Source: an uncultured Fibrobacterota bacterium (GTDB lineage: Bacteria; Fibrobacterota; Chitinivibrionia; Chitinivibrionales; WJKA01). Taken from it: a stretch of DNA of 10,555 nt. Numbering within the stretch: the first letter of the stretch is position 1; every line of letters begins with the position of its first letter. A model generated the notes under the pieces. That model was given only the letters and a program-made list of their open reading frames with translations. It did not search any database and was not told the DNA's origin. The position numbers and the translations under genes were made by a program. Below, in pieces: positions 406 through 10,555 of the stretch. Location of the stretch: the NCBI GenBank assembly GCA_964571815.1, contig CAZNDN010000137.1:1-10555 (forward strand), written 5' to 3'.

Positions 406-434
406 TTGACATCCCGGGAAAAATGTTGTATATT
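406..434 (+). promoter_or_regulatory. Sigma70-type promoter for the GntR-led operon: -35 TTGACA (406-411), 17-nt spacer, -10 TATATT (429-434)
   Basis: Seen in sequence: a perfect TTGACA hexamer, a 17-nt spacer, and a TATATT hexamer (4/6 to TATAAT). It lies about 40 nt upstream of the first ATG of the regulator gene and 10 nt after the last in-frame stop of the upstream region. Confidence 0.6.
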
Positions 435-437
435 GCT

Positions 438-461
438 ATTGTACTGGTTAACCATAACAAT
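438..461 (+). promoter_or_regulatory. Putative GntR-family operator: 24-bp imperfect palindrome ATTGTact-GGTTAACC-ataACAAT, centred on a perfect GGTTAACC core
   Basis: Seen in sequence: the 8-bp core is a perfect palindrome and the flanking ATTGT/ACAAT arms are a perfect inverted repeat. The GT...AC arrangement matches the generic GntR operator pattern. The site starts 4 nt after the -10 hexamer, so it overlaps the expected transcription start and would support autorepression. Confidence 0.5.
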
Positions 462-2053: not shown

Positions 2054-5002
2054 ATGCGAACGAGACTGTATAGGTGGCTGGCCGGACTGGTGACCCGTCA
2101 TCCGGGCAAGGTCCTGATCGGATGTGCGGTGATGACCGTGTTGCTGCTGGCGGCCTCCGGGCGGCTGGGCATGAAAACGCAGTTTGCCGACATGCTGCCC
2201 GAGGATATCCCTCAGATCAAGGAGTTTCTGGAGATTGTCGAAGACTACGGTTCCGAATCCACGGTCATGATTACCGTGGAGAGCAGGGACAAGGACGTGA
2301 AAGGCATGCGGGCGTGCGCCGACGATCTGGCCGGACGGCTGGAGAAGATCTCTCTGCCGAAGCCCGTCGACGAAAGCAAACTCTCGATCGGACACAAAAT
2401 CGCTCTTGCCCGGGGGCGGTCCCCATCGGACATTGCCTGGGACACACTGCAGCTTGTCAAGCGTGTCGACTACAAGCTCGACAACGAGTTTGTCGCCGAG
2501 CACGGCCTGATGATTCAGAAGACCAACGACCTGGAAAGCATGATCGATATGTTCGGGTCGCTCGGGCTTCCGGGGCTTATCCGCAATATCAACGACAATT
2601 TCGAGAAGGAGTACATCGAAGACTCCGACAATCTTACCACCCTCGACGGTGAGGGGCAGGCGGTGCAGGGGCTGGAAGGCATACGCAGGTTCCTGATGAG
2701 CATCCGGCGGTATATCGACAATCCCGACTCCGAAGAGGTGGCGCGGGCCGTGGCCGATTTTGTCACCGGACCCCGGTATTTCGTGTCGCCCGACAACAGC
2801 ATGATCCTGCTCATGCTGCAGCCGACGATCAGTTTCAATGAATTCGAAGACCTGATGTATCTGGGGTACCGTATCGACGATACGCTGGGGGTGGTCCGGG
2901 AAGCGTATCCCGAGCTTGATCTGGGCCGCACGGGCGCAATGATGGTGCAGATTGACGAAAACTACGCTATGGCAAAGGACTTCGGCTGGCCGAGCCTGAT
3001 TATCCTGGCGCTTATCCTGCTGCTGTTGATCGGCTCGTTCCGCACCTGGAAGAACCCCTTCTATTCGGTCGCTACGCTGGTTGCGGGGATCGTGTGGACC
3101 GCCGGCATCCTGGCGCTGGTGCTTCACTACCTCAATATGATGTCGGCCGGATTCGGTATCGTGCTGATCGGGCTGGGTATCGATTTCGGCATACATTTCA
3201 TCTCCGGCTACCGCGACGGGCGCGAGCAGGGGATGTCGCCGAAGGACTCGATTTTCTACATGTACACGCGGGTCGGCGCCGGTGTCTGGACCGGAGCCTT
3301 GACAACCGCAATTGTCTTCTTCACCATGCCCCTGACCCGGTTCGAGGCGTACTCGCAGATGGGTCTTGCCATGGGAATCGGAATCGTCACGGTACTGATT
3401 GCCATGATGGTGATGCTGCCGGCGCTGATCGTCTGGGACAACAAGGGCTATTCGGTTGTCGGCAAGGCGCTGCGAAGACTGGGGCTCGGTTTCGTCGTCA
3501 CGGGCTGGAACGCCGCCGGCAGAGCGATTGCCGCGGTATTCCGCCTGCCGGTGTTCGGGTGGATCAGCGGCGTGTTCCAGTTCGGGTTCCTTTCGACGAT
3601 CGGGCGCCTGATCGGGCATCCCGTGGTTGCAGTCGGCGCGCTGGCGCTTAGCGGCGTGGTGGTGTACGTGTCGATCTCCGGCGGTATGAAGATGCAGTGG
3701 GAGTACGACATGATGGAGCTGTCGGCCAAGGGCGCCCTGGGGTATGTAACCCAGGAGAAGATTATCGATCACTTCGAATTCAGCCCCGACTATGCCATGG
3801 TCAAGGCCGGCAGTATTGAGGAGTGCCGCGAGATGGTGCGGGAGTACAAGAAGATCGGCAATCGCACCGGCCTGATCGGCCAGGTCGACGCGATCACCGA
3901 GTTTCTCCCGCCCCGGGACGTGCAGGAGGCCAACGCGGAGGTGATCCGACAGTTCGCGGACACGGTGCGCGCAATGCCGATCCCCGTATCCCTGGACACC
4001 GGCGGCATGCACGAGCTTTTACGGGAGCTGGAGCGGCTGCACCGGAATATCGTCGAGATCGGCGCGCTTTCGGTGATGAGCAGCGGCGAGAACAACAAGA
4101 TCGTGCGCAAGTGCGACCGGATTGTGGGGAAGCGTGATGAAGACAGTTTCATTCTGGCCCTGGCCTCGGAAGTGGGTGGGTTGGATGAGAACACGCGGGT
4201 GATCGGCGCCTACCAGAGGATCATGGCCGGCGTGCTCAAGCGCAAACTGCTCGGCATGGCCTCGACCGACTGGGTGACGTTCGAGAGTCTTCCCCATGAT
4301 ATCAGGAAGCGGTATGTCAACCCGCGAAACGACGATCTTCTGATCAACGTCTATCCCAAGGGCTATATCTGGGATGAGAAAAACCTGAGCAAATTCAACG
4401 AGCAGACCGCACGGGTATCGGAGCGCATCACCGGCATGCCGGCCCTGATGCAACTGATGATGGGGTTGATGGCGGAGAAAGGGAGACTGGCGGTGATCTT
4501 CGGGGTGTGCGCGATCGCGGTATTCCTGCTGCTTGATTTCCGCTCGCTGTTCTACACCGTACTGGCGGTCATTCCCCTGGCGGTCGGCGCAGCCTGGATG
4601 GTCGGGTGCATGGCGATGCTGGGCATGAAACTGAGCATGGTCAATTTCATGGCGCTTCCGCTCATCATTGGAATCGGTATCGATGACGGCGTGCATGTTC
4701 TTCACCGGTATCGTATTGAAGGACGGGGTTCCATGCCCCTGGTGCTCACGTATACCGGTCGGGCCATACTGCTGACATCGCTGACCACCATGATCGGTTT
4801 CGGCTCCATGGGACTGGCATCGCATCGGGGTCTTGCGGGCCTGGGGAAGACCCTGTTTTTCGGTGTCGGCTGCTGTTTTCTCAGTTCGGTGATCGTGCTG
4901 CCGGCAATCATCACACTGTGGGAGCGAATATTCAAGGCCGGGAGGGTCCGAGCGACCGCATCGGATACACAGCGGCCGGAGCTTCACGGAAAGGAAGGTT
5001 GA
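2054..5002 (+). CDS. RND-superfamily exporter of the MMPL/COG1033 type (HpnN-like putative lipid transporter), 982 aa, 12 predicted TM helices with two large periplasmic domains
   Basis: ATG at 2054 with an AGAGGAGA SD 6-7 nt upstream. The ORF track starts at an unlikely TTG at 1994. Translation shows the RND 1+5 / 1+5 TM topology with periplasmic loops of ~250 and ~300 aa. Both TM4 and TM10 carry the conserved GxxxD-type motifs: GIVLIGLGIDFGIHFISGY and PLIIGIGIDDGVHVLHRY. Confidence 0.85.
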   Translation: MRTRLYRWLAGLVTRHPGKVLIGCAVMTVLLLAASGRLGMKTQFADMLPEDIPQIKEFLEIVEDYGSESTVMITVESRDKDVKGMRACADDLAGRLEKISLPKPVDESKLSIGHKIALARGRSPSDIAWDTLQLVKRVDYKLDNEFVAEHGLMIQKTNDLESMIDMFGSLGLPGLIRNINDNFEKEYIEDSDNLTTLDGEGQAVQGLEGIRRFLMSIRRYIDNPDSEEVARAVADFVTGPRYFVSPDNSMILLMLQPTISFNEFEDLMYLGYRIDDTLGVVREAYPELDLGRTGAMMVQIDENYAMAKDFGWPSLIILALILLLLIGSFRTWKNPFYSVATLVAGIVWTAGILALVLHYLNMMSAGFGIVLIGLGIDFGIHFISGYRDGREQGMSPKDSIFYMYTRVGAGVWTGALTTAIVFFTMPLTRFEAYSQMGLAMGIGIVTVLIAMMVMLPALIVWDNKGYSVVGKALRRLGLGFVVTGWNAAGRAIAAVFRLPVFGWISGVFQFGFLSTIGRLIGHPVVAVGALALSGVVVYVSISGGMKMQWEYDMMELSAKGALGYVTQEKIIDHFEFSPDYAMVKAGSIEECREMVREYKKIGNRTGLIGQVDAITEFLPPRDVQEANAEVIRQFADTVRAMPIPVSLDTGGMHELLRELERLHRNIVEIGALSVMSSGENNKIVRKCDRIVGKRDEDSFILALASEVGGLDENTRVIGAYQRIMAGVLKRKLLGMASTDWVTFESLPHDIRKRYVNPRNDDLLINVYPKGYIWDEKNLSKFNEQTARVSERITGMPALMQLMMGLMAEKGRLAVIFGVCAIAVFLLLDFRSLFYTVLAVIPLAVGAAWMVGCMAMLGMKLSMVNFMALPLIIGIGIDDGVHVLHRYRIEGRGSMPLVLTYTGRAILLTSLTTMIGFGSMGLASHRGLAGLGKTLFFGVGCCFLSSVIVLPAIITLWERIFKAGRVRATASDTQRPELHGKEG

Positions 5003-5004
5003 TC

Positions 5005-5220
5005 ATGTCTGATGTCGGGAACACGAACCGGTTGATGCGGTCGAAGTGCGATGGGCGCTTCTCCGCCGGCGCGGTGCGCCGCGCGCTGAGAGCGCTTTCC
5101 GAGCGGGCGTCGTCTCTTTCACCACGCGGGAACCGTCGGACGGTGAGCGCGTTCTACTGGGGTCTTCCGGAACATTGTCGCCTACCGGGCGGCGGCTTCA
5201 AGGAGGTGTATCATGATTAG
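5005..5220 (+). CDS. Possible small coupling ORF (71 aa, Arg-rich, no recognisable domain) bridging the MMPL and LolA-like genes
   Basis: ATG lies 3 nt after the MMPL stop, with a strong AAGGAAGG SD 6 nt upstream (inside the MMPL 3' end). Third-codon positions are mostly G/C, like the neighbouring genes. Its stop TAG (5218-5220) overlaps the LolA-like ATG (5213) as ATGATTAG. Weaknesses: it is a sub-ORF of the 4918..5220 ORF, there are no homology signals, and the composition (R/S/G/A) could be random GC-rich sequence. Confidence 0.3.
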   Translation: MSDVGNTNRLMRSKCDGRFSAGAVRRALRALSERASSLSPRGNRRTVSAFYWGLPEHCRLPGGGFKEVYHD

Positions 5221-5947
5221 GGCTTTGTTTCTCTCGATGCTTGCGGCGCTACCCGCGGGAGCGCTCACCGTGGATGAGATACTTGACAAGATGGAGGCCA
5301 ACGAGGAGGCGCGGACATCACGCATGGAAGCGACCATGGTGGTGTATGATGTCGCCGGCAAGGAGCGGACTTCGGAGCTTATCAGCTACGGCTGCGACAA
5401 GGGTGACAAGGGGCTCATGGAGTATGTCTCGCCGGCGCGGATCAAGGGCATGAAGATGCTGATGCTCAACGACGGGGACGATATCTGGGTGTATTTCCCC
5501 CGTACCGCACGCGTGCGCAAGATCGCATCGCACCAGAAGAAGCAGTCGGTCAACAACTCCGATTTCAGCTATGAAGACCTGTCCATGCGCGACAATCGCA
5601 AGGACTATCACTGCACGCTCGCCGGTGAAGAGACAAAAGACGGCGCGGCATGCTACAAGATTGTCATGAAGGCCAGGGACCCGGAGAAGACCTATCAGAG
5701 GATAGTCATGTGGGTGGACAAGGAAAGCTTCGTTTCCGTTGCCGCCGAGTTTTTCGATGAGGACGGGCAGTTGTGGAAGCAACTGGAGGTTGACGATGTC
5801 ACCCGGATCGGCGACTACTGGACGGCCAGGACAATCGAGATGAAGGATGTCCAGAAAGGGAGCCGCACGGTGATGAAGATGGACAAGATCGAGTATGATA
5901 TCCAGCTCGATGAAAGCATGTTCAGCGAACGGTATCTGAAGAAGTAA
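5213..5947 (+). CDS. LolA-like periplasmic protein (outer-membrane lipoprotein-sorting / LolA_like family, the kind genomically paired with MMPL exporters), with signal peptide
   Basis: AGGAGGT SD 5 nt upstream. N-terminal signal peptide MIRALFLSMLAALPAGA. The mature N-terminus LTVDEILDKMEANEEARTSRMEATMVVYD matches, by memory, the characteristic start of the LolA_like family found next to RND/MMPL genes. The rest is beta-rich, consistent with an unclosed beta-barrel carrier fold. No cysteine lipobox, so it is soluble periplasmic rather than a lipoprotein. Confidence 0.55.
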   Translation: MIRALFLSMLAALPAGALTVDEILDKMEANEEARTSRMEATMVVYDVAGKERTSELISYGCDKGDKGLMEYVSPARIKGMKMLMLNDGDDIWVYFPRTARVRKIASHQKKQSVNNSDFSYEDLSMRDNRKDYHCTLAGEETKDGAACYKIVMKARDPEKTYQRIVMWVDKESFVSVAAEFFDEDGQLWKQLEVDDVTRIGDYWTARTIEMKDVQKGSRTVMKMDKIEYDIQLDESMFSERYLKK

Positions 5948-5974: not shown

Positions 5975-7282
5975 ATGAAAACCATGCTGTGGGTCGTTGT
6001 TGCGCTTTTGCCGGCGGCCGCCGGAACGGACAATCTCCGCTTCGGCGGGTATGTCGAAAACGGCACATCGGTGATGCTTGCCGACGAGGAGAGCATCTCC
6101 GATGCCGCATCGGTGCGGCTTGAAGGAGACTGGGATTTCGGCAAGCGGGGCGCTATCGAGACGCATGTCCTTCTCTCGGCGGCGCTTCAGCCGCTCGACC
6201 CGAGTATCGCGTTCCGGCGGAATTCCTTTCTTGCGGACATCATGGATGAGTTGGAGCAGGGGCTCATGGCGGAGGCAGCGGACGTGCTGGGGCAGGAACC
6301 TGTGGACACCAACGAAGTGGACTCCGCTCAGCTCCGCGAGCAGGCTCGCCTGCAGCGGAAACGGCGGAAGCAGGTGGACAATCTCCTTACCTACCTGCCC
6401 TATACATCGTTTTACCCGGTGGATCGGGTTCTTCTGGACCGGGCCTTGCTGAAGCTGTATTTCGAGGGTGCTGATTTGTATATCGGTCGCCAGACTATCG
6501 CCTGGGGCACGGGCTACGCGTTCAACCCCACGGATATCTGGAACAGGAAAAACCCTCTGGATCCCACTGCCCCCAAAGTTGGTGTCAACGCCCTGCGCGC
6601 GGAGATTCCGCTAGGCATGCTCAGCGGAATCTCCCTTGTCCTGGCCCCCGGCCCCGATTTCGATCACACGAGCGGGGGCATGCGGTTGAAAGGAAACCTG
6701 GGCGGGTTCGATCTGTCCATCTCGGGCATGCGTATCATGAATGCCGACCGGGAGCTGCTGGGGTTGCCCGAGAAATGGGCGATCGGCGCGGATATGGCCG
6801 GTCAGATCGGTGATGTGGGCGTGTGGACCGAGGCCGCGGTCAACAATCCCGTGTACGATGGCATGTCGTACACCGATTTGGATTCGTTGTACGTGCAGGC
6901 TGATGCAGGGGCGGATTACACGTTTGAGTGGGGCACGTACGTCATGCTGGAGTACTACTACAACGGCCCGGGGCGCGGCGATCCCGACGACTACGGCGTG
7001 CGGGATCTGCTGTATGTGTTCACCGGTGAAACCGCCGGCTTCGGACGTCACTACCTCATGGCCGGCACGCGGCATACCTTCGGCAATTATTACCGCGTGT
7101 CCGGTTTCGTACTGGGCAATATCAGCGATCGTTCGGCCATGCTGCTGCCCTCCATTGCCTACGATTTCTCGGACAACATGACAATAGAACTCAGCTCCCA
7201 GATCGGAATCGGCGACAAGAAGCGAACCGAGTTCGGCGCAGTGTTCGGCAACCTGATGCTGACGGTCACGGGGTATTTTTAG
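5975..7282 (+). CDS. Putative outer-membrane beta-barrel protein (435 aa), with signal peptide and C-terminal aromatic residue
   Basis: GGAGG SD 5 nt upstream. Signal peptide MKTMLWVVVALLPAAAG. The C-terminus ...FGNLMLTVTGYF ends in Phe, the OMP beta-signature. There are many alternating-hydrophobic strands with G/Y/N/D-rich turns (YYRVSGFVLGNISD, MTIELSSQIGIGD, YTFEWGTYVMLEYYYNG). It also has an unusual internal charged segment, QLREQARLQRKRRKQVDN. Family not recognised. Confidence 0.6.
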   Translation: MKTMLWVVVALLPAAAGTDNLRFGGYVENGTSVMLADEESISDAASVRLEGDWDFGKRGAIETHVLLSAALQPLDPSIAFRRNSFLADIMDELEQGLMAEAADVLGQEPVDTNEVDSAQLREQARLQRKRRKQVDNLLTYLPYTSFYPVDRVLLDRALLKLYFEGADLYIGRQTIAWGTGYAFNPTDIWNRKNPLDPTAPKVGVNALRAEIPLGMLSGISLVLAPGPDFDHTSGGMRLKGNLGGFDLSISGMRIMNADRELLGLPEKWAIGADMAGQIGDVGVWTEAAVNNPVYDGMSYTDLDSLYVQADAGADYTFEWGTYVMLEYYYNGPGRGDPDDYGVRDLLYVFTGETAGFGRHYLMAGTRHTFGNYYRVSGFVLGNISDRSAMLLPSIAYDFSDNMTIELSSQIGIGDKKRTEFGAVFGNLMLTVTGYF

Positions 7283-9302: not shown

Positions 9303-9326
9303 CACGAGTACGAGTACGAGCACGAG
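9303..9326 (+). repeat. Tandem hexamer repeat (CACGAG TACGAG TACGAG CACGAG) in the 80-bp gap between the two permease genes
   Basis: Seen in sequence: 4 x YACGAG. A mini-ORF (ATG 9267 to TAA 9347, 26 aa, [26 protein letters not shown]) reads the repeat as HEYEYEHE. It has no convincing SD, and its ATG overlaps the upstream permease stop. Confidence 0.5.
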
Positions 9327-9350
9327 GACTATTCCGGACAGGACTAACGT

Positions 9351-10555
9351 ATGTGGTATTTTCTGAAGCTTGCGCTTCGTAACCTTCGCCGCAACAGGCG
9401 TCGGTCTTTGCTGGCCGTGTTGTCGGTGTCGCTGGCGATTACTTTCATCGTGTTTCTTCAGGGCATGATCGGCGGGTTCATGGGTTCGCTGGTGCGCAAT
9501 TACACGCGCAGTGAAACCGGTCATGTCCGGATTGCGACCCGGGATTTCGTGGACAAAATACGTTTCTATCCGGTGACCGAGAATATCGAGAATCCGCAAT
9601 CGATTATCGAGACGGTGCGGAGCGATCCGCGGATCGCGGAGCACGTGGAGATAGTCACGGAGCGGACTAATTTCGGGGTGCTTCTGAGCCACCACGGCAA
9701 CAACCGGAACGCGGTGGCCCTGGCCGGCGATCCGGAGACCGAACGGGACCTACTGCTTCTGCACAAGTCCATTCTTCCGGGCGGGCGCTATATCCAGGGT
9801 GAACGTGAGACGATTATGGGGGCGGCGCTGGCCGAGGCGCTTGATTACGAGGTTGGCGACACGGTGAAAGTCATGGCACAGGGAAGCGACTATGCGCTTC
9901 ATCTTCGAAAATTGGCGATTGTGGGCCTGTTCGAATCGGGACTCAGGGAGATGGATGAGCGCATTTTTCAGATGTCGCTCAGTGATGCCAGGGAGCTGCT
10001 GCGTATGCGCACGGCGACTCAGCAGATTGTTATCATGCTTGACGATTATCATCGTGCCGGCGCGGTTGCCGGGGCGTTGCAAAGCGCAATCGGCGACACG
10101 ACGCTGTCGATTCAGTCGTGGAGAGACGCGGGCATATACGGCGACTACGTCACCATGGCCTCGAACGTGTACGGGATCATCTACCTGGTGATTGCGCTGC
10201 TGGGAACGTTTATTATCGGCAATATCATGATGATGGTGGTGCTGGAGCGGCGGCGGGAGATCGGTGTGCTCAAGTCAATGGGCTTCTCGCGTCGTGGGAT
10301 CCTGGTTTTGTTCGTAATGGAAGGCTTGCTGCTGGGGCTGGCCGGAAGTCTGGCCGGCGTAATCGGCGGGACTGGGGTGTCGCTGTATTTTCATGTTTTC
10401 GGCCTTGACTTCACCAGCGCCCTCAGCTCGGTAAGCATGCCCATGGACAACGTGGTATACACCACGATCGAAGTCGGCGGTCTGATTCAGGCGCTTGTTC
10501 TGGGAACAATCGTTGCGGGCGTGGTCTCCTTGATCCCGTCATGGCAGGCCGCGAG
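9351..10555 (+). CDS. Second FtsX/MacB-fold ABC permease (LolC/LolE-like paralogue), 3'-partial: 401 codons seen and no stop within the window
   Basis: AGGA SD 7 nt upstream. It is absent from the ORF track only because it runs off the window. Translation starts MWYFLKLALRNLRRNRRRSLLAVLSVSLAITFIVFLQGMIGGF (TM1). A periplasmic domain follows, then the FtsX signature block IIYLVIALLGTFIIGNIMMMVVLERRREIGVLKSMGFSRRGILVLFVMEGLLLGLAGSLAG. No internal stops up to position 10553. Confidence 0.9.
   Translation, partial: MWYFLKLALRNLRRNRRRSLLAVLSVSLAITFIVFLQGMIGGFMGSLVRNYTRSETGHVRIATRDFVDKIRFYPVTENIENPQSIIETVRSDPRIAEHVEIVTERTNFGVLLSHHGNNRNAVALAGDPETERDLLLLHKSILPGGRYIQGERETIMGAALAEALDYEVGDTVKVMAQGSDYALHLRKLAIVGLFESGLREMDERIFQMSLSDARELLRMRTATQQIVIMLDDYHRAGAVAGALQSAIGDTTLSIQSWRDAGIYGDYVTMASNVYGIIYLVIALLGTFIIGNIMMMVVLERRREIGVLKSMGFSRRGILVLFVMEGLLLGLAGSLAGVIGGTGVSLYFHVFGLDFTSALSSVSMPMDNVVYTTIEVGGLIQALVLGTIVAGVVSLIPSWQAA

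Follow-up and report, generated by a model that had tools for sequence, protein, structure and literature searches.

Several described bacterial gene clusters combine an HAE3-type RND pump with a periplasmic protein and an outer-membrane barrel. In Castellaniella defragrans, AmeABCD (an HAE3 RND pump together with DUF1329 and DUF1302 proteins) provides tolerance to monoterpenes as well as efflux of dyes (PMC6394551). The barrel formed by DUF1302 has 18 strands, and a complex with DUF1329 is predicted with an interface predicted TM-score (ipTM) of 0.84 (PMC13499233). Genes of clusters that encode DUF1302, DUF1329, BNR and COG1033-RND proteins are cofit in several bacteria (10.1101/072470). In Thalassolituus oleivorans, TOL_3187 is a fusion of MMPL and LolA-like sequences, and the next gene, TOL_3188, encodes a predicted porin without a conserved domain (PMC6304351); the gene fusion thus links the same three functions. 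A comparable locus is described here from an uncultured Fibrobacterota bacterium. It occupies contig CAZNDN010000137.1, an entire metagenome-assembled contig of 10,555 bp, which is termed the window. Three consecutive genes of the window encode an RND pump, a LolA_like carrier of the LolA3 type and an outer-membrane barrel of an unannotated family. These probably represent the three legs of an outward trans-envelope relay for a hydrophobic or amphiphilic molecule.

The pump displays a match to the Pfam family MMPL (PF03176) in two stretches, with 112.8 bits compared with a gathering cut-off of 20.5. The hydropathy profile shows the order transmembrane segment (TM) 1, a loop of ~270 aa, TM2–6, TM7, a loop of ~268 aa and TM8–12; the two periplasmic domains span aa 39–309 and 543–810. 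The motifs GIDFGIH and GIDDGVH place an Asp residue in both TM4 and TM10. In an alignment of 41 related RND proteins (29%–100% identity), D377 and D877 are invariant, H381 is found in 40 of the 41 and H881, H884 and R885 are found in all. The proton relay is therefore under selection, as D377, D877, H881, H884 and R885 never vary. A reading made from the nucleotide sequence alone (the sequence-only reading) had described a 982-aa RND protein with Asp-bearing TM4 and TM10 motifs and two periplasmic domains, and this description holds in every part.

The ATG start codon of the pump gene is preceded by a ribosome-binding site, GGAGGAG. A longer open reading frame from a TTG at position 1994 is unsupported because the homologues have chain lengths of 982–986 aa.

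The strong NCBIfam matches of the pump are all of the HAE3 type (HpnN, 2A067 and BstA), whereas its sole HAE1 match is OqxB, with an E-value of 0.004. On these grounds the pump is classed, by sequence, as an HAE3/HpnN-like RND pump and not as a drug-type HAE1 pump. The best match is to HpnN (TIGR03480, E-value = 1e-92). In a PDB sequence search, the best solved structure is also HpnN (5khn, E-value = 7.6e-28), followed by Dispatched and MmpL4/5. All curated cut-offs were missed, however. The HAE3 model TIGR00921 gave 210.9 bits, which is formally under its cut-off of 351.9, and BstA gave 204 bits, also under its cut-off. The pump was thus rejected as an MmpL orthologue and as BstA. It was likewise rejected as an HpnN orthologue: besides the missed cut-offs, hopanoid genes are absent from the window and from the related loci L001, L004–L006, L009, L012 and L013. 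The sequence-only reading had proposed an HpnN/MmpL-like lipid pump. The grouping by sequence with the HAE3/HpnN type is supported, but orthology with HpnN or MmpL is not.

A two-component system of the HpnN/MmpL type would consist of the pump and a periplasmic chaperone that receives an endogenous lipid (a hopanoid, for example) from it, and would have no outer-membrane part of its own. Such a system is disfavoured and seems very unlikely. The LolA-superfamily fold of the partner is in keeping with it, and so are the top hits of the pump in NCBIfam and the PDB, which are to HpnN. The equivalog scores, however, fall far short (311.5 bits vs. 751.85 for TIGR03480, and 161.2 bits vs. 1100 for NF052374), and genes for synthesis of hopanoids or other lipids are conserved in no related locus. 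HpnN is, in addition, described as working without periplasmic or outer-membrane partners (PMC6394551), whereas the barrel gene is coupled to a LolA_like gene, as shown below.

One gene run contains an RND pump along with a local repressor and a channel for the outer membrane, and this may also bring to mind a classical HAE1 tripartite drug-efflux pump similar to AcrAB-TolC. This is hardly credible here. Apart from the poor OqxB match, Pfam and NCBIfam scans detected no HlyD/membrane-fusion protein (MFP) or OEP/TolC domains in any protein of the window, and the barrel is predicted to be an 18-stranded, monomer-type structure rather than a TolC-like trimer. HAE1 membership is thus refuted, and the result that the sequence-only reading had named as one that would overturn it, a grouping with HAE1 proteins that require MFP and outer-membrane factor partners, was not obtained. 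Efflux of hydrophobic toxins by way of the LolA_like protein and the barrel is a different matter and stays within the best explanation.

The carrier has an N-terminal hydrophobic signal sequence of the cleavable type and lacks a lipobox Cys. It matches the LolA_like family PF17131 with an E-value of 2.2e-60 (203.9 bits compared with a cut-off of 30) over positions 3–184 of the 184-position model. The match spans residues 65–244, which is most of the protein up to the C-terminus. The 244-aa LolA_like protein with a signal peptide reported in the sequence-only reading is thus upheld, but the similarity is not specific to the mature N-terminus as had been stated. There is also a match to DUF1329 (PF07044, 43.6 bits, cut-off 23.1), but only between residues 158–229 and model positions 276–348 of ~368. 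This appears from the alignment to be a related C-terminal region and not a sign of full membership.

A PDB sequence search with the carrier yielded four structures: 9TP6 (E-value = 2.3e-33), 4Z48, 3BK5 and 3BUU. An AlphaFold (AF2) model built with 33 homologues has a mean predicted local distance difference test (pLDDT) value of 87.1 and shows one N-terminal helix and 13 strands. Foldseek comparison of the model gave TM-scores of 0.81 for 9tp6 (32% identity), 0.78 for 4z48, 0.78 for 3bk5 and 0.72 for 3buu, but only ~0.45 for canonical LolA structures; LprG is among the weaker matches. The model therefore agrees with the LolA fold that the sequence-only reading had proposed to check by structure prediction, and the non-LolA fold that would have spoken against it was not found. 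Canonical LolA itself is rejected, not only by the TM-score but also by the scores for PF03548 (17.9 vs. 23.6 bits) and TIGR00547 (22.8 vs. 112 bits). As modelled, the carrier has the LolA-superfamily fold and is of a distinct LolA3 subtype.

9TP6 is LolA3 of Porphyromonas gingivalis (LolA3-PG), whose crystal structure shows a 13-stranded sheet with a hydrophobic groove (PMC13103446). By analogy, a hydrophobic groove is assumed for the carrier as well. LolA3-PG binds LolB weakly and is without the LolA Arg and LolB Leu signatures, and "a separate function" was proposed for it (PMC13103446). Deletion of lolA3 in Flavobacterium johnsoniae results in no defect in gliding or type IX secretion (T9SS) (PMC11885536).

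Residues 107–124 of the carrier (nt 5531–5584) form the only stretch of the model with low confidence (pLDDT 57–72). This stretch is also among the most conserved: S112, S116, D117, F118, D122 and S124 are invariant in the 33 homologues. A loop that is both flexible and conserved is a candidate for a lid or a partner-docking element.

The barrel gene starts 27 nt downstream of the LolA_like gene. Its product has a signal peptide and a C-terminal ...TGYF, and a confident predicted model shows a closed antiparallel 18-stranded barrel. Occ/OprD channels, AlgE, ChiP and LamB are among the best structural matches. In its number of strands and its best structural neighbours the barrel agrees with what was reported for DUF1302 (PMC13499233). 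The 435-aa sequence nevertheless has no Pfam or NCBIfam match. Among 45 members of the barrel family searched against Pfam there were only sub-threshold touches, six to Wzi and three to DUF1302 (PF06980), the best with an E-value of 4.4e-4. Membership in DUF1302 was thus rejected on HMMER scores, the window protein itself showing no match. A search with a barrel profile yielded 8458 cluster representatives, 1162 of them at an E-value of 1e-30 or less. This is a large outer-membrane family that lies outside the libraries used here; with no Pfam or NCBIfam model, it is invisible to annotation pipelines despite its thousands of members.

Two segments of the barrel model may be pointed out. A two-helix insert is found between strands 3 and 4 (residues 76–143, nt 6200–6403). 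Between strands 5 and 6 there is a highly conserved non-strand segment of 30 residues, GRQxIAWGTGYAFNPTDIWNxKNPLDPxAPK (residues 171–203, nt 6485–6583). By porin convention, this would be loop 3, which constricts the lumen.

The gene order was compared in related loci (designated by L and P numbers). Near-identical members of the carrier family were used to reach longer contigs. A genome scan gave 3 loci, and a metagenome scan was run with the barrel profile instead; the sample consists of the best 80 matches to that one profile and is hence biased. Even so, the coupling between the LolA_like and barrel genes is very tight and near-obligate: of the 64 loci for which upstream sequence is available, 61 have a LolA_like gene directly upstream of the barrel gene and in the same orientation, and the other 3 are ABC-type or interrupted. 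An RND gene is adjacent in 58 of the 80 loci, in the order RND-LolA-barrel in 17 and LolA-barrel-RND in 41. Among 21 fully flanked loci, an RND gene is present in 16 and an ABC transporter in 1. The triad of RND, LolA_like and barrel genes is also found in distant lineages, namely in Stahlbacteria (L002), in L012, where a TetR gene is present, and in L013. In a few loci a LolCDE-like ABC transporter replaces the RND pump; the order LolA_like-FtsX-FtsX-ATPase-barrel is present in the P0098 locus and in L091.

Among closer relatives, Chitinispirillum alkaliphilum (L004) and L005 keep the order GntR-SPFH-RND-LolA_like-barrel and lack the ABC genes. The GntR gene is directly upstream of SPFH-RND in L004, L005, L009, L015 and L016. 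In L001, whose carrier is 61% identical, the same ten genes occur together in a rearranged order, with the GntR gene within the locus. A Fibrobacter sp. has a carrier with 58% identity (P0161). One insertion was seen in the distant relative L013 (7274–9238), where the RND and LolA_like genes are separated by a gene for a protein of 654 aa that carries the peptide-N-glycosidase F C-terminal domain (PF09113, E-value = 1e-20).

The sequence-only reading had paired the pump with its periplasmic partner as a module. The LolA-superfamily partner is borne out, and its matches, as well as those of the pump, are far beyond chance, which confirms the observation; the third member, the barrel, had been missed. 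As it was written, that finding is an ordinary annotation which would not surprise a transporter specialist. What is added here is a barrel family without annotation, which pairs near-obligately with LolA3-type carriers, and interchangeable RND and ABC energisers side by side.

The following sequence of events is proposed. As judged from the pump family, the proton gradient, acting through the Asp-His relay of TM4 and TM10, would lift a membrane-partitioned cargo off the outer leaflet of the inner membrane into the periplasmic domains of the pump. Fold and synteny suggest that the soluble LolA3-type carrier would then take up the cargo in its hydrophobic groove. The near-obligate adjacency of the two genes, together with the analogy to the predicted DUF1302-DUF1329 complex, suggests that the carrier would dock on the 18-stranded barrel, which may insert the cargo into the outer membrane or free it at the surface. 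Alternatively, a LolCDE-like (type VII) ABC transporter could power the same outer leg, LolA_like protein and barrel, with ATP. Both versions would be present in one run headed by the GntR gene: RND pump, carrier 1 and barrel 1, then the ABC transporter with a carrier 2 and barrel 2 that lie off the window. The run also appears to provide a membrane scaffold of the SPFH type.

Outward transport is, as far as is known, common to the characterised HAE3/MmpL RND pumps and type VII ABC transporters (MacB, LolCDE), and the relay is drawn as outward because of this. The same behaviour of the two families argues against uptake, in which nutrients of a hydrophobic kind, such as long-chain alkanes, fatty esters and lipophiles that are heme-like or linked to iron, would be imported across the outer membrane and periplasm by the barrel and carrier. 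Uptake is considered unlikely. No catabolic genes, TonB or inner-membrane importers are found in the window or in the related loci L004–L006 and L009. When AmeABCD is lost, more dye accumulates and tolerance falls, as would be expected of efflux (PMC6394551). In favour of uptake, the barrel's structural matches include the substrate-specific uptake channels Occ/OprD, ChiP and LamB, and PG1178-80 of P. gingivalis and their Prevotella paralogues are up 13- to 220-fold under iron/heme limitation (PMC10434189, PMC13096392).

Other points weigh against the outward relay as drawn. In Thalassolituus, TOL_3187/TOL_3188 show 42-fold induction, or exclusive expression, on n-C28 (PMC6304351), and Pseudomonas mutants in DUF1302, DUF1329 and RND genes have fitness defects on Tween 20 and on butyl stearate (10.1101/2020.07.04.188060); both would suit uptake. 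The direction is suggested by family behaviour alone. In 4 of the 21 fully flanked loci the LolA_like/barrel pair has neither an RND nor an ABC gene nearby, and a search for a third type of energiser in L064, L067 and L070 showed only unrelated genes. Finally, the genes from GntR to permease 2 likely form one operon, but co-transcription is proposed because of gene spacing and one conserved promoter.

As to the cargo, homologous systems respond to differing cues in the cited literature: monoterpenes, C28 alkane, Tween 20/fatty esters, iron/heme limitation and nitric oxide (NO) stress. An inducible system would fit the local repressors, which are GntR in the window and TetR or LuxR in other systems, and there is therefore a slight lean to expulsion of membrane-active hydrophobes over housekeeping lipid export. 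The cargo may well be a toxic or exogenous hydrophobe (solvent-, terpene- or fatty-acid-like) that is being expelled, which is given somewhat less than an even chance; a self-made envelope lipid or amphiphile is a real possibility too, held with a little less confidence, and what remains falls to uptake or lipoproteins.

The sequence-only reading noted that no biosynthetic genes lie in the window, and domain scans of the window proteins likewise found none. It also suggested inspection of the flanking genome for lipid biosynthesis. In the related loci examined (L004–L006, L009, L012, L013 and the P0098 locus), no recurring biosynthetic neighbours that would name a cargo are present. Inspection of the flanks is therefore unlikely to reveal the cargo. 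In L005 (11459–21287), a short MMPL protein of 580 aa is encoded on the opposite strand after the module, along with an AMP-dependent ligase, a protein resembling acyltransferases, a DUF3419 protein and an enzyme that utilises PEP. The group has the look of a biosynthetic cluster for something lipid-like; it is found at that locus only and so gives no conserved clue to the cargo.

The ABC genes encode one ATPase and two permeases. The ATPase gave 223.1 bits with the LolD model TIGR02211, below the cut-off of 307.75, and permease 1 gave 117.4 bits with the lolCE model TIGR02212, below the cut-off of 362.45; LolCDE identity was thus rejected. Full-length permease 2 genes in L006 and L009 are 95%–100% identical to the window copy. 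The near-identical 15.9-kb L006 and the 90%-identical L009 extend the locus past permease 2, where the next gene encodes another LolA_like protein, with 246 aa and 32% identity to carrier 1. It is accompanied by a second barrel of 380 aa ending in ...VKF, which is 32% identical to the first barrel over 184 aa and shares its GRQ..G motif. LolA1/LolA2 and OMP1/OMP2 are thus paralogous pairs. Since the longer relatives carry this second pair beyond the window end, the window truncates a ten-gene locus. An ACGAGT/ACGAGC tandem repeat lies between the permease genes, with 3.8 copies here and ~30 in L009 (12192–12369); it is a variable-number repeat within a presumed operon.

The similarity of these proteins to Lol components raises the question of lipoprotein sorting: the LolA_like proteins and the ABC transporter would be the Lol pathway (LolCDE and LolA) of the phylum, with the RND pump a mere neighbour. 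The ATPase and permeases do score best with the LolD and LolC/E models, the layout is heteromeric with two permeases, and sources label the carrier family "outer membrane lipoprotein-sorting protein". Fibrobacter proteomics also lists FSU_2598, which has LolA and LolA_like domains, under the Lol pathway (PMC6851124). The explanation is nevertheless improbable. The cut-offs for LolA, LolCE and LolD were all missed, the carrier model is far closer to LolA3 than to canonical LolA, and the weak LolB binding of LolA3-PG, its lack of the LolA Arg and LolB Leu signatures and the absence of gliding and T9SS defects in the F. johnsoniae mutant argue against it. Moreover, each LolA_like gene is tied to a barrel gene, and RND is a commoner partner than ABC.

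By similarity, the window proteins are closest to proteins of Fibrobacterota (Chitinispirillales, Chitinivibrionales and Fibrobacter). Every credible gene is on the plus strand; there are 8 genes, the last of which runs off the contig. The features are given in Table 1.

Table 1. Features of the window and of the second carrier/barrel pair in longer relatives.
Feature	Position (nt)	Strand	Remarks
Sigma-70-like promoter, TTGACA-17 nt-TATATT, 5′ of GntR gene	406..434	+	11/12 consensus positions; putative function
Palindrome ATTGTACTGGTTAACCATAACAAT, just past the -10 hexamer	438..461	.	Inverted repeat; probable GntR operator
Short GntR-family regulator (YtrA/Rv1152/PmtR-like), 135 aa	476..883	+	PF00392, E-value = 6.7e-15
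SPFH/Band 7 (stomatin/HflK-like) membrane-anchored protein, 324 aa	887..1861	+	PF01145, E-value = 2.3e-31
HAE3-like RND/MMPL inner-membrane pump, 982 aa	2054..5002	+	12 TM, two ~270-aa periplasmic domains
TM4 motif GIDFGIH	3176..3196	+	aa 375-381; D377
TM10 motif GIDDGVH	4676..4696	+	aa 875-881; D877
RND/LolA_like spacer, 210 nt	5003..5212	+	
LolA3-type LolA_like secreted periplasmic carrier, 244 aa	5213..5947	+	PF17131
18-stranded outer-membrane beta-barrel, unannotated family, 435 aa	5975..7282	+	
LolD/MacB-like ABC ATPase, 231 aa	7325..8020	+	PF00005, E-value = 7.7e-36
FtsX/MacB_PCD permease 1 (LolC/E-like), 417 aa	8017..9270	+	PF02687 and PF12704
Hexanucleotide repeat (ACGAGT), 3.8 copies, between permease genes	9304..9326	.	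Tandem Repeats Finder (TRF)
FtsX/MacB_PCD permease 2, cut by contig end (412 aa in relatives)	9349..10555	+	Translation
Second LolA_like/barrel pair	L009 13944-15823; L006 15271-15903		

The sequence-only reading had bounded the module at the pump and carrier. This is too narrow, as the GntR and SPFH genes upstream and the LolCDE-like ABC genes downstream share the plus-strand run behind one promoter. The promoter (TTGACA-17-TATAnT) is kept at the same place in L001, L004, L005 and L009, where the upstream intergenic sequence diverges. The 24-nt palindrome has 13-nt arms that are 85% complementary, and a TGTA...TACA palindrome is found at the same position in L001, L004, L005, L009 and L015. 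Both elements are thus retained upstream of the GntR gene in relatives with 56%–68% protein identity, even though the intergenic sequence around them has diverged. The palindrome is probably an autoregulatory operator of the GntR protein, and the gene run is probably repressed at this promoter-overlapping site. The top NCBIfam matches of the GntR protein are the Rv1152 family and PmtR, both below cut-off. The SPFH protein shows hydrophobic segments at its N-terminus in the hydropathy profile, and SPFH orthologues with 72%–73% identity adjoin the GntR gene in the relatives checked (L001, L004 and L005).

The spacer between the pump and carrier genes is exactly 210 nt, as had been stated from the sequence. 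No Rfam families were detected anywhere in the window, spacer included, and the spacer shows no excess RNA structure (fold z-score −0.30). It is termed lineage-specific because the RND and LolA_like genes overlap without a spacer in L004 and L005. An open reading frame of 71 codons (5005–5220) is present in the spacer, with an RBS-like (ribosome-binding site) sequence GGAAGG; its stop codon overlaps the start codon of the LolA_like gene as ATGA. The frame is kept in L009 across a 30-nt indel. The substitutions between the two, however, are not coding-like: there are 21, 16 and 26 at the three codon positions, with 10 synonymous compared with 30 non-synonymous, and the 3′ half of the spacer is kept at the DNA level. 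The frame, which is missing from the relatives with overlapping genes, is doubtful; the stretch could encode a small protein or be a regulatory element.

The transit of hydrophobic molecules other than lipoproteins and LPS through the periplasm to the outer membrane is poorly understood. The locus offers a compact conserved list of parts: a pump or ABC extractor, a LolA3-type carrier and a dedicated barrel. One testable model would join the orphan LolA3 paralogues of Bacteroidota, the iron/heme-regulated PG1178-81, the DUF1302/DUF1329 cofitness clusters and the solvent tolerance of AmeABCD. It is possible, although tentative, that the LolA3-type carrier and the unannotated barrel (>8000 clusters, many phyla) constitute a generic periplasm-to-outer-membrane leg that plugs into either an HAE3 RND pump or a LolCDE-like ABC transporter. 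If true, this would be a distinct, widespread envelope route for lipids and hydrophobes beside Lol, Lpt and Mla, and it would account for both the orphan LolA3 found in Bacteroidota and PG1178-81, the heme-starvation operon.

No paper was found in the literature that characterises exactly this module, but several known systems share parts of it. The closest in composition are AmeABCD and the Pseudomonas/Shewanella DUF1302/DUF1329/BNR/COG1033-RND clusters, which, as in the window, combine an HAE3-type RND pump, a LolA-superfamily periplasmic protein and an 18-stranded barrel (PMC6394551, 10.1101/072470, PMC13499233). Both have a local regulator and no MFP/TolC, and the cargo, where one is indicated, is hydrophobic. 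Occ channels and AlgE are structural neighbours common to the window barrel and DUF1302. There are clear differences. The carrier of the window is a 244-aa PF17131 protein, compared with a 451-aa PF07044 protein in the AmeABCD type, and the barrel is 435 aa without a Pfam match, compared with the 605-aa DUF1302. GntR and SPFH genes take the place of LuxR, and the run adds an alternative ABC energiser with its own carrier/barrel pair, unlike AmeABCD. The COG4447/BNR beta-propeller gene, which is part of the AmeABCD-type cassette, is absent from the window. The window is thus not a member of the four-gene AmeABCD cassette, as it lacks the beta-propeller and its barrel and carrier belong to other families.

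HpnN (5KHN, 6WU0) resembles the pump in its 12-TM topology, two periplasmic domains and acidic residues in TM4 and TM10. It has no dedicated carrier or barrel (PMC6394551), whereas the window pump sits in a three-gene module. The LolCDE-LolA-LolB pathway follows the same logic, with an extractor in the inner membrane, a soluble carrier that has the LolA fold and an acceptor in the outer membrane, and LolCDE and the window ABC module both have one ATPase and two FtsX permeases. The acceptor of the Lol pathway is the lipoprotein LolB, however, and that of the window a predicted integral 18-stranded barrel; the Lol pathway is ABC-driven, whereas the main energiser of the module family is an RND pump.

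Mycobacterial Rv1410-LprG is similar in that an inner-membrane transporter shares an operon with a LolA-fold lipid-binding protein and lipids are brought to the outer membrane (PMC6519032). It differs in having an MFS transporter in place of RND, a lipoprotein as carrier, no barrel and an actinobacterial host. TOL_3187/TOL_3188, likened here by description only, differ by the fusion of domains, the gammaproteobacterial host and induction by n-C28 alkane.

The last system is PG1181-PG1178 of P. gingivalis, with paralogues in Prevotella intermedia; together with AmeABCD, it ranks as the nearest described analogue. The gene order is as in the window: TetR, MMPL, "outer membrane lipoprotein-sorting protein", then "porin" (PMC10434189, PMC13096392, PMC11018363). 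ABC genes adjoin, annotated merely as "ABC transporter ATP-binding proteins". The regulator is TetR and there is no SPFH gene, whereas the window has GntR and SPFH. The operon is induced by iron/heme limitation and NO stress (PMC10434189, PMC13096392, PMC11018363). The closest solved structure for the carrier is also from P. gingivalis (LolA3, PGN0947, 9TP6; 32% identity, TM-score 0.81). As judged from gene order and annotation alone, the module of the window probably corresponds to the uncharacterised PG1181-PG1178 operon.

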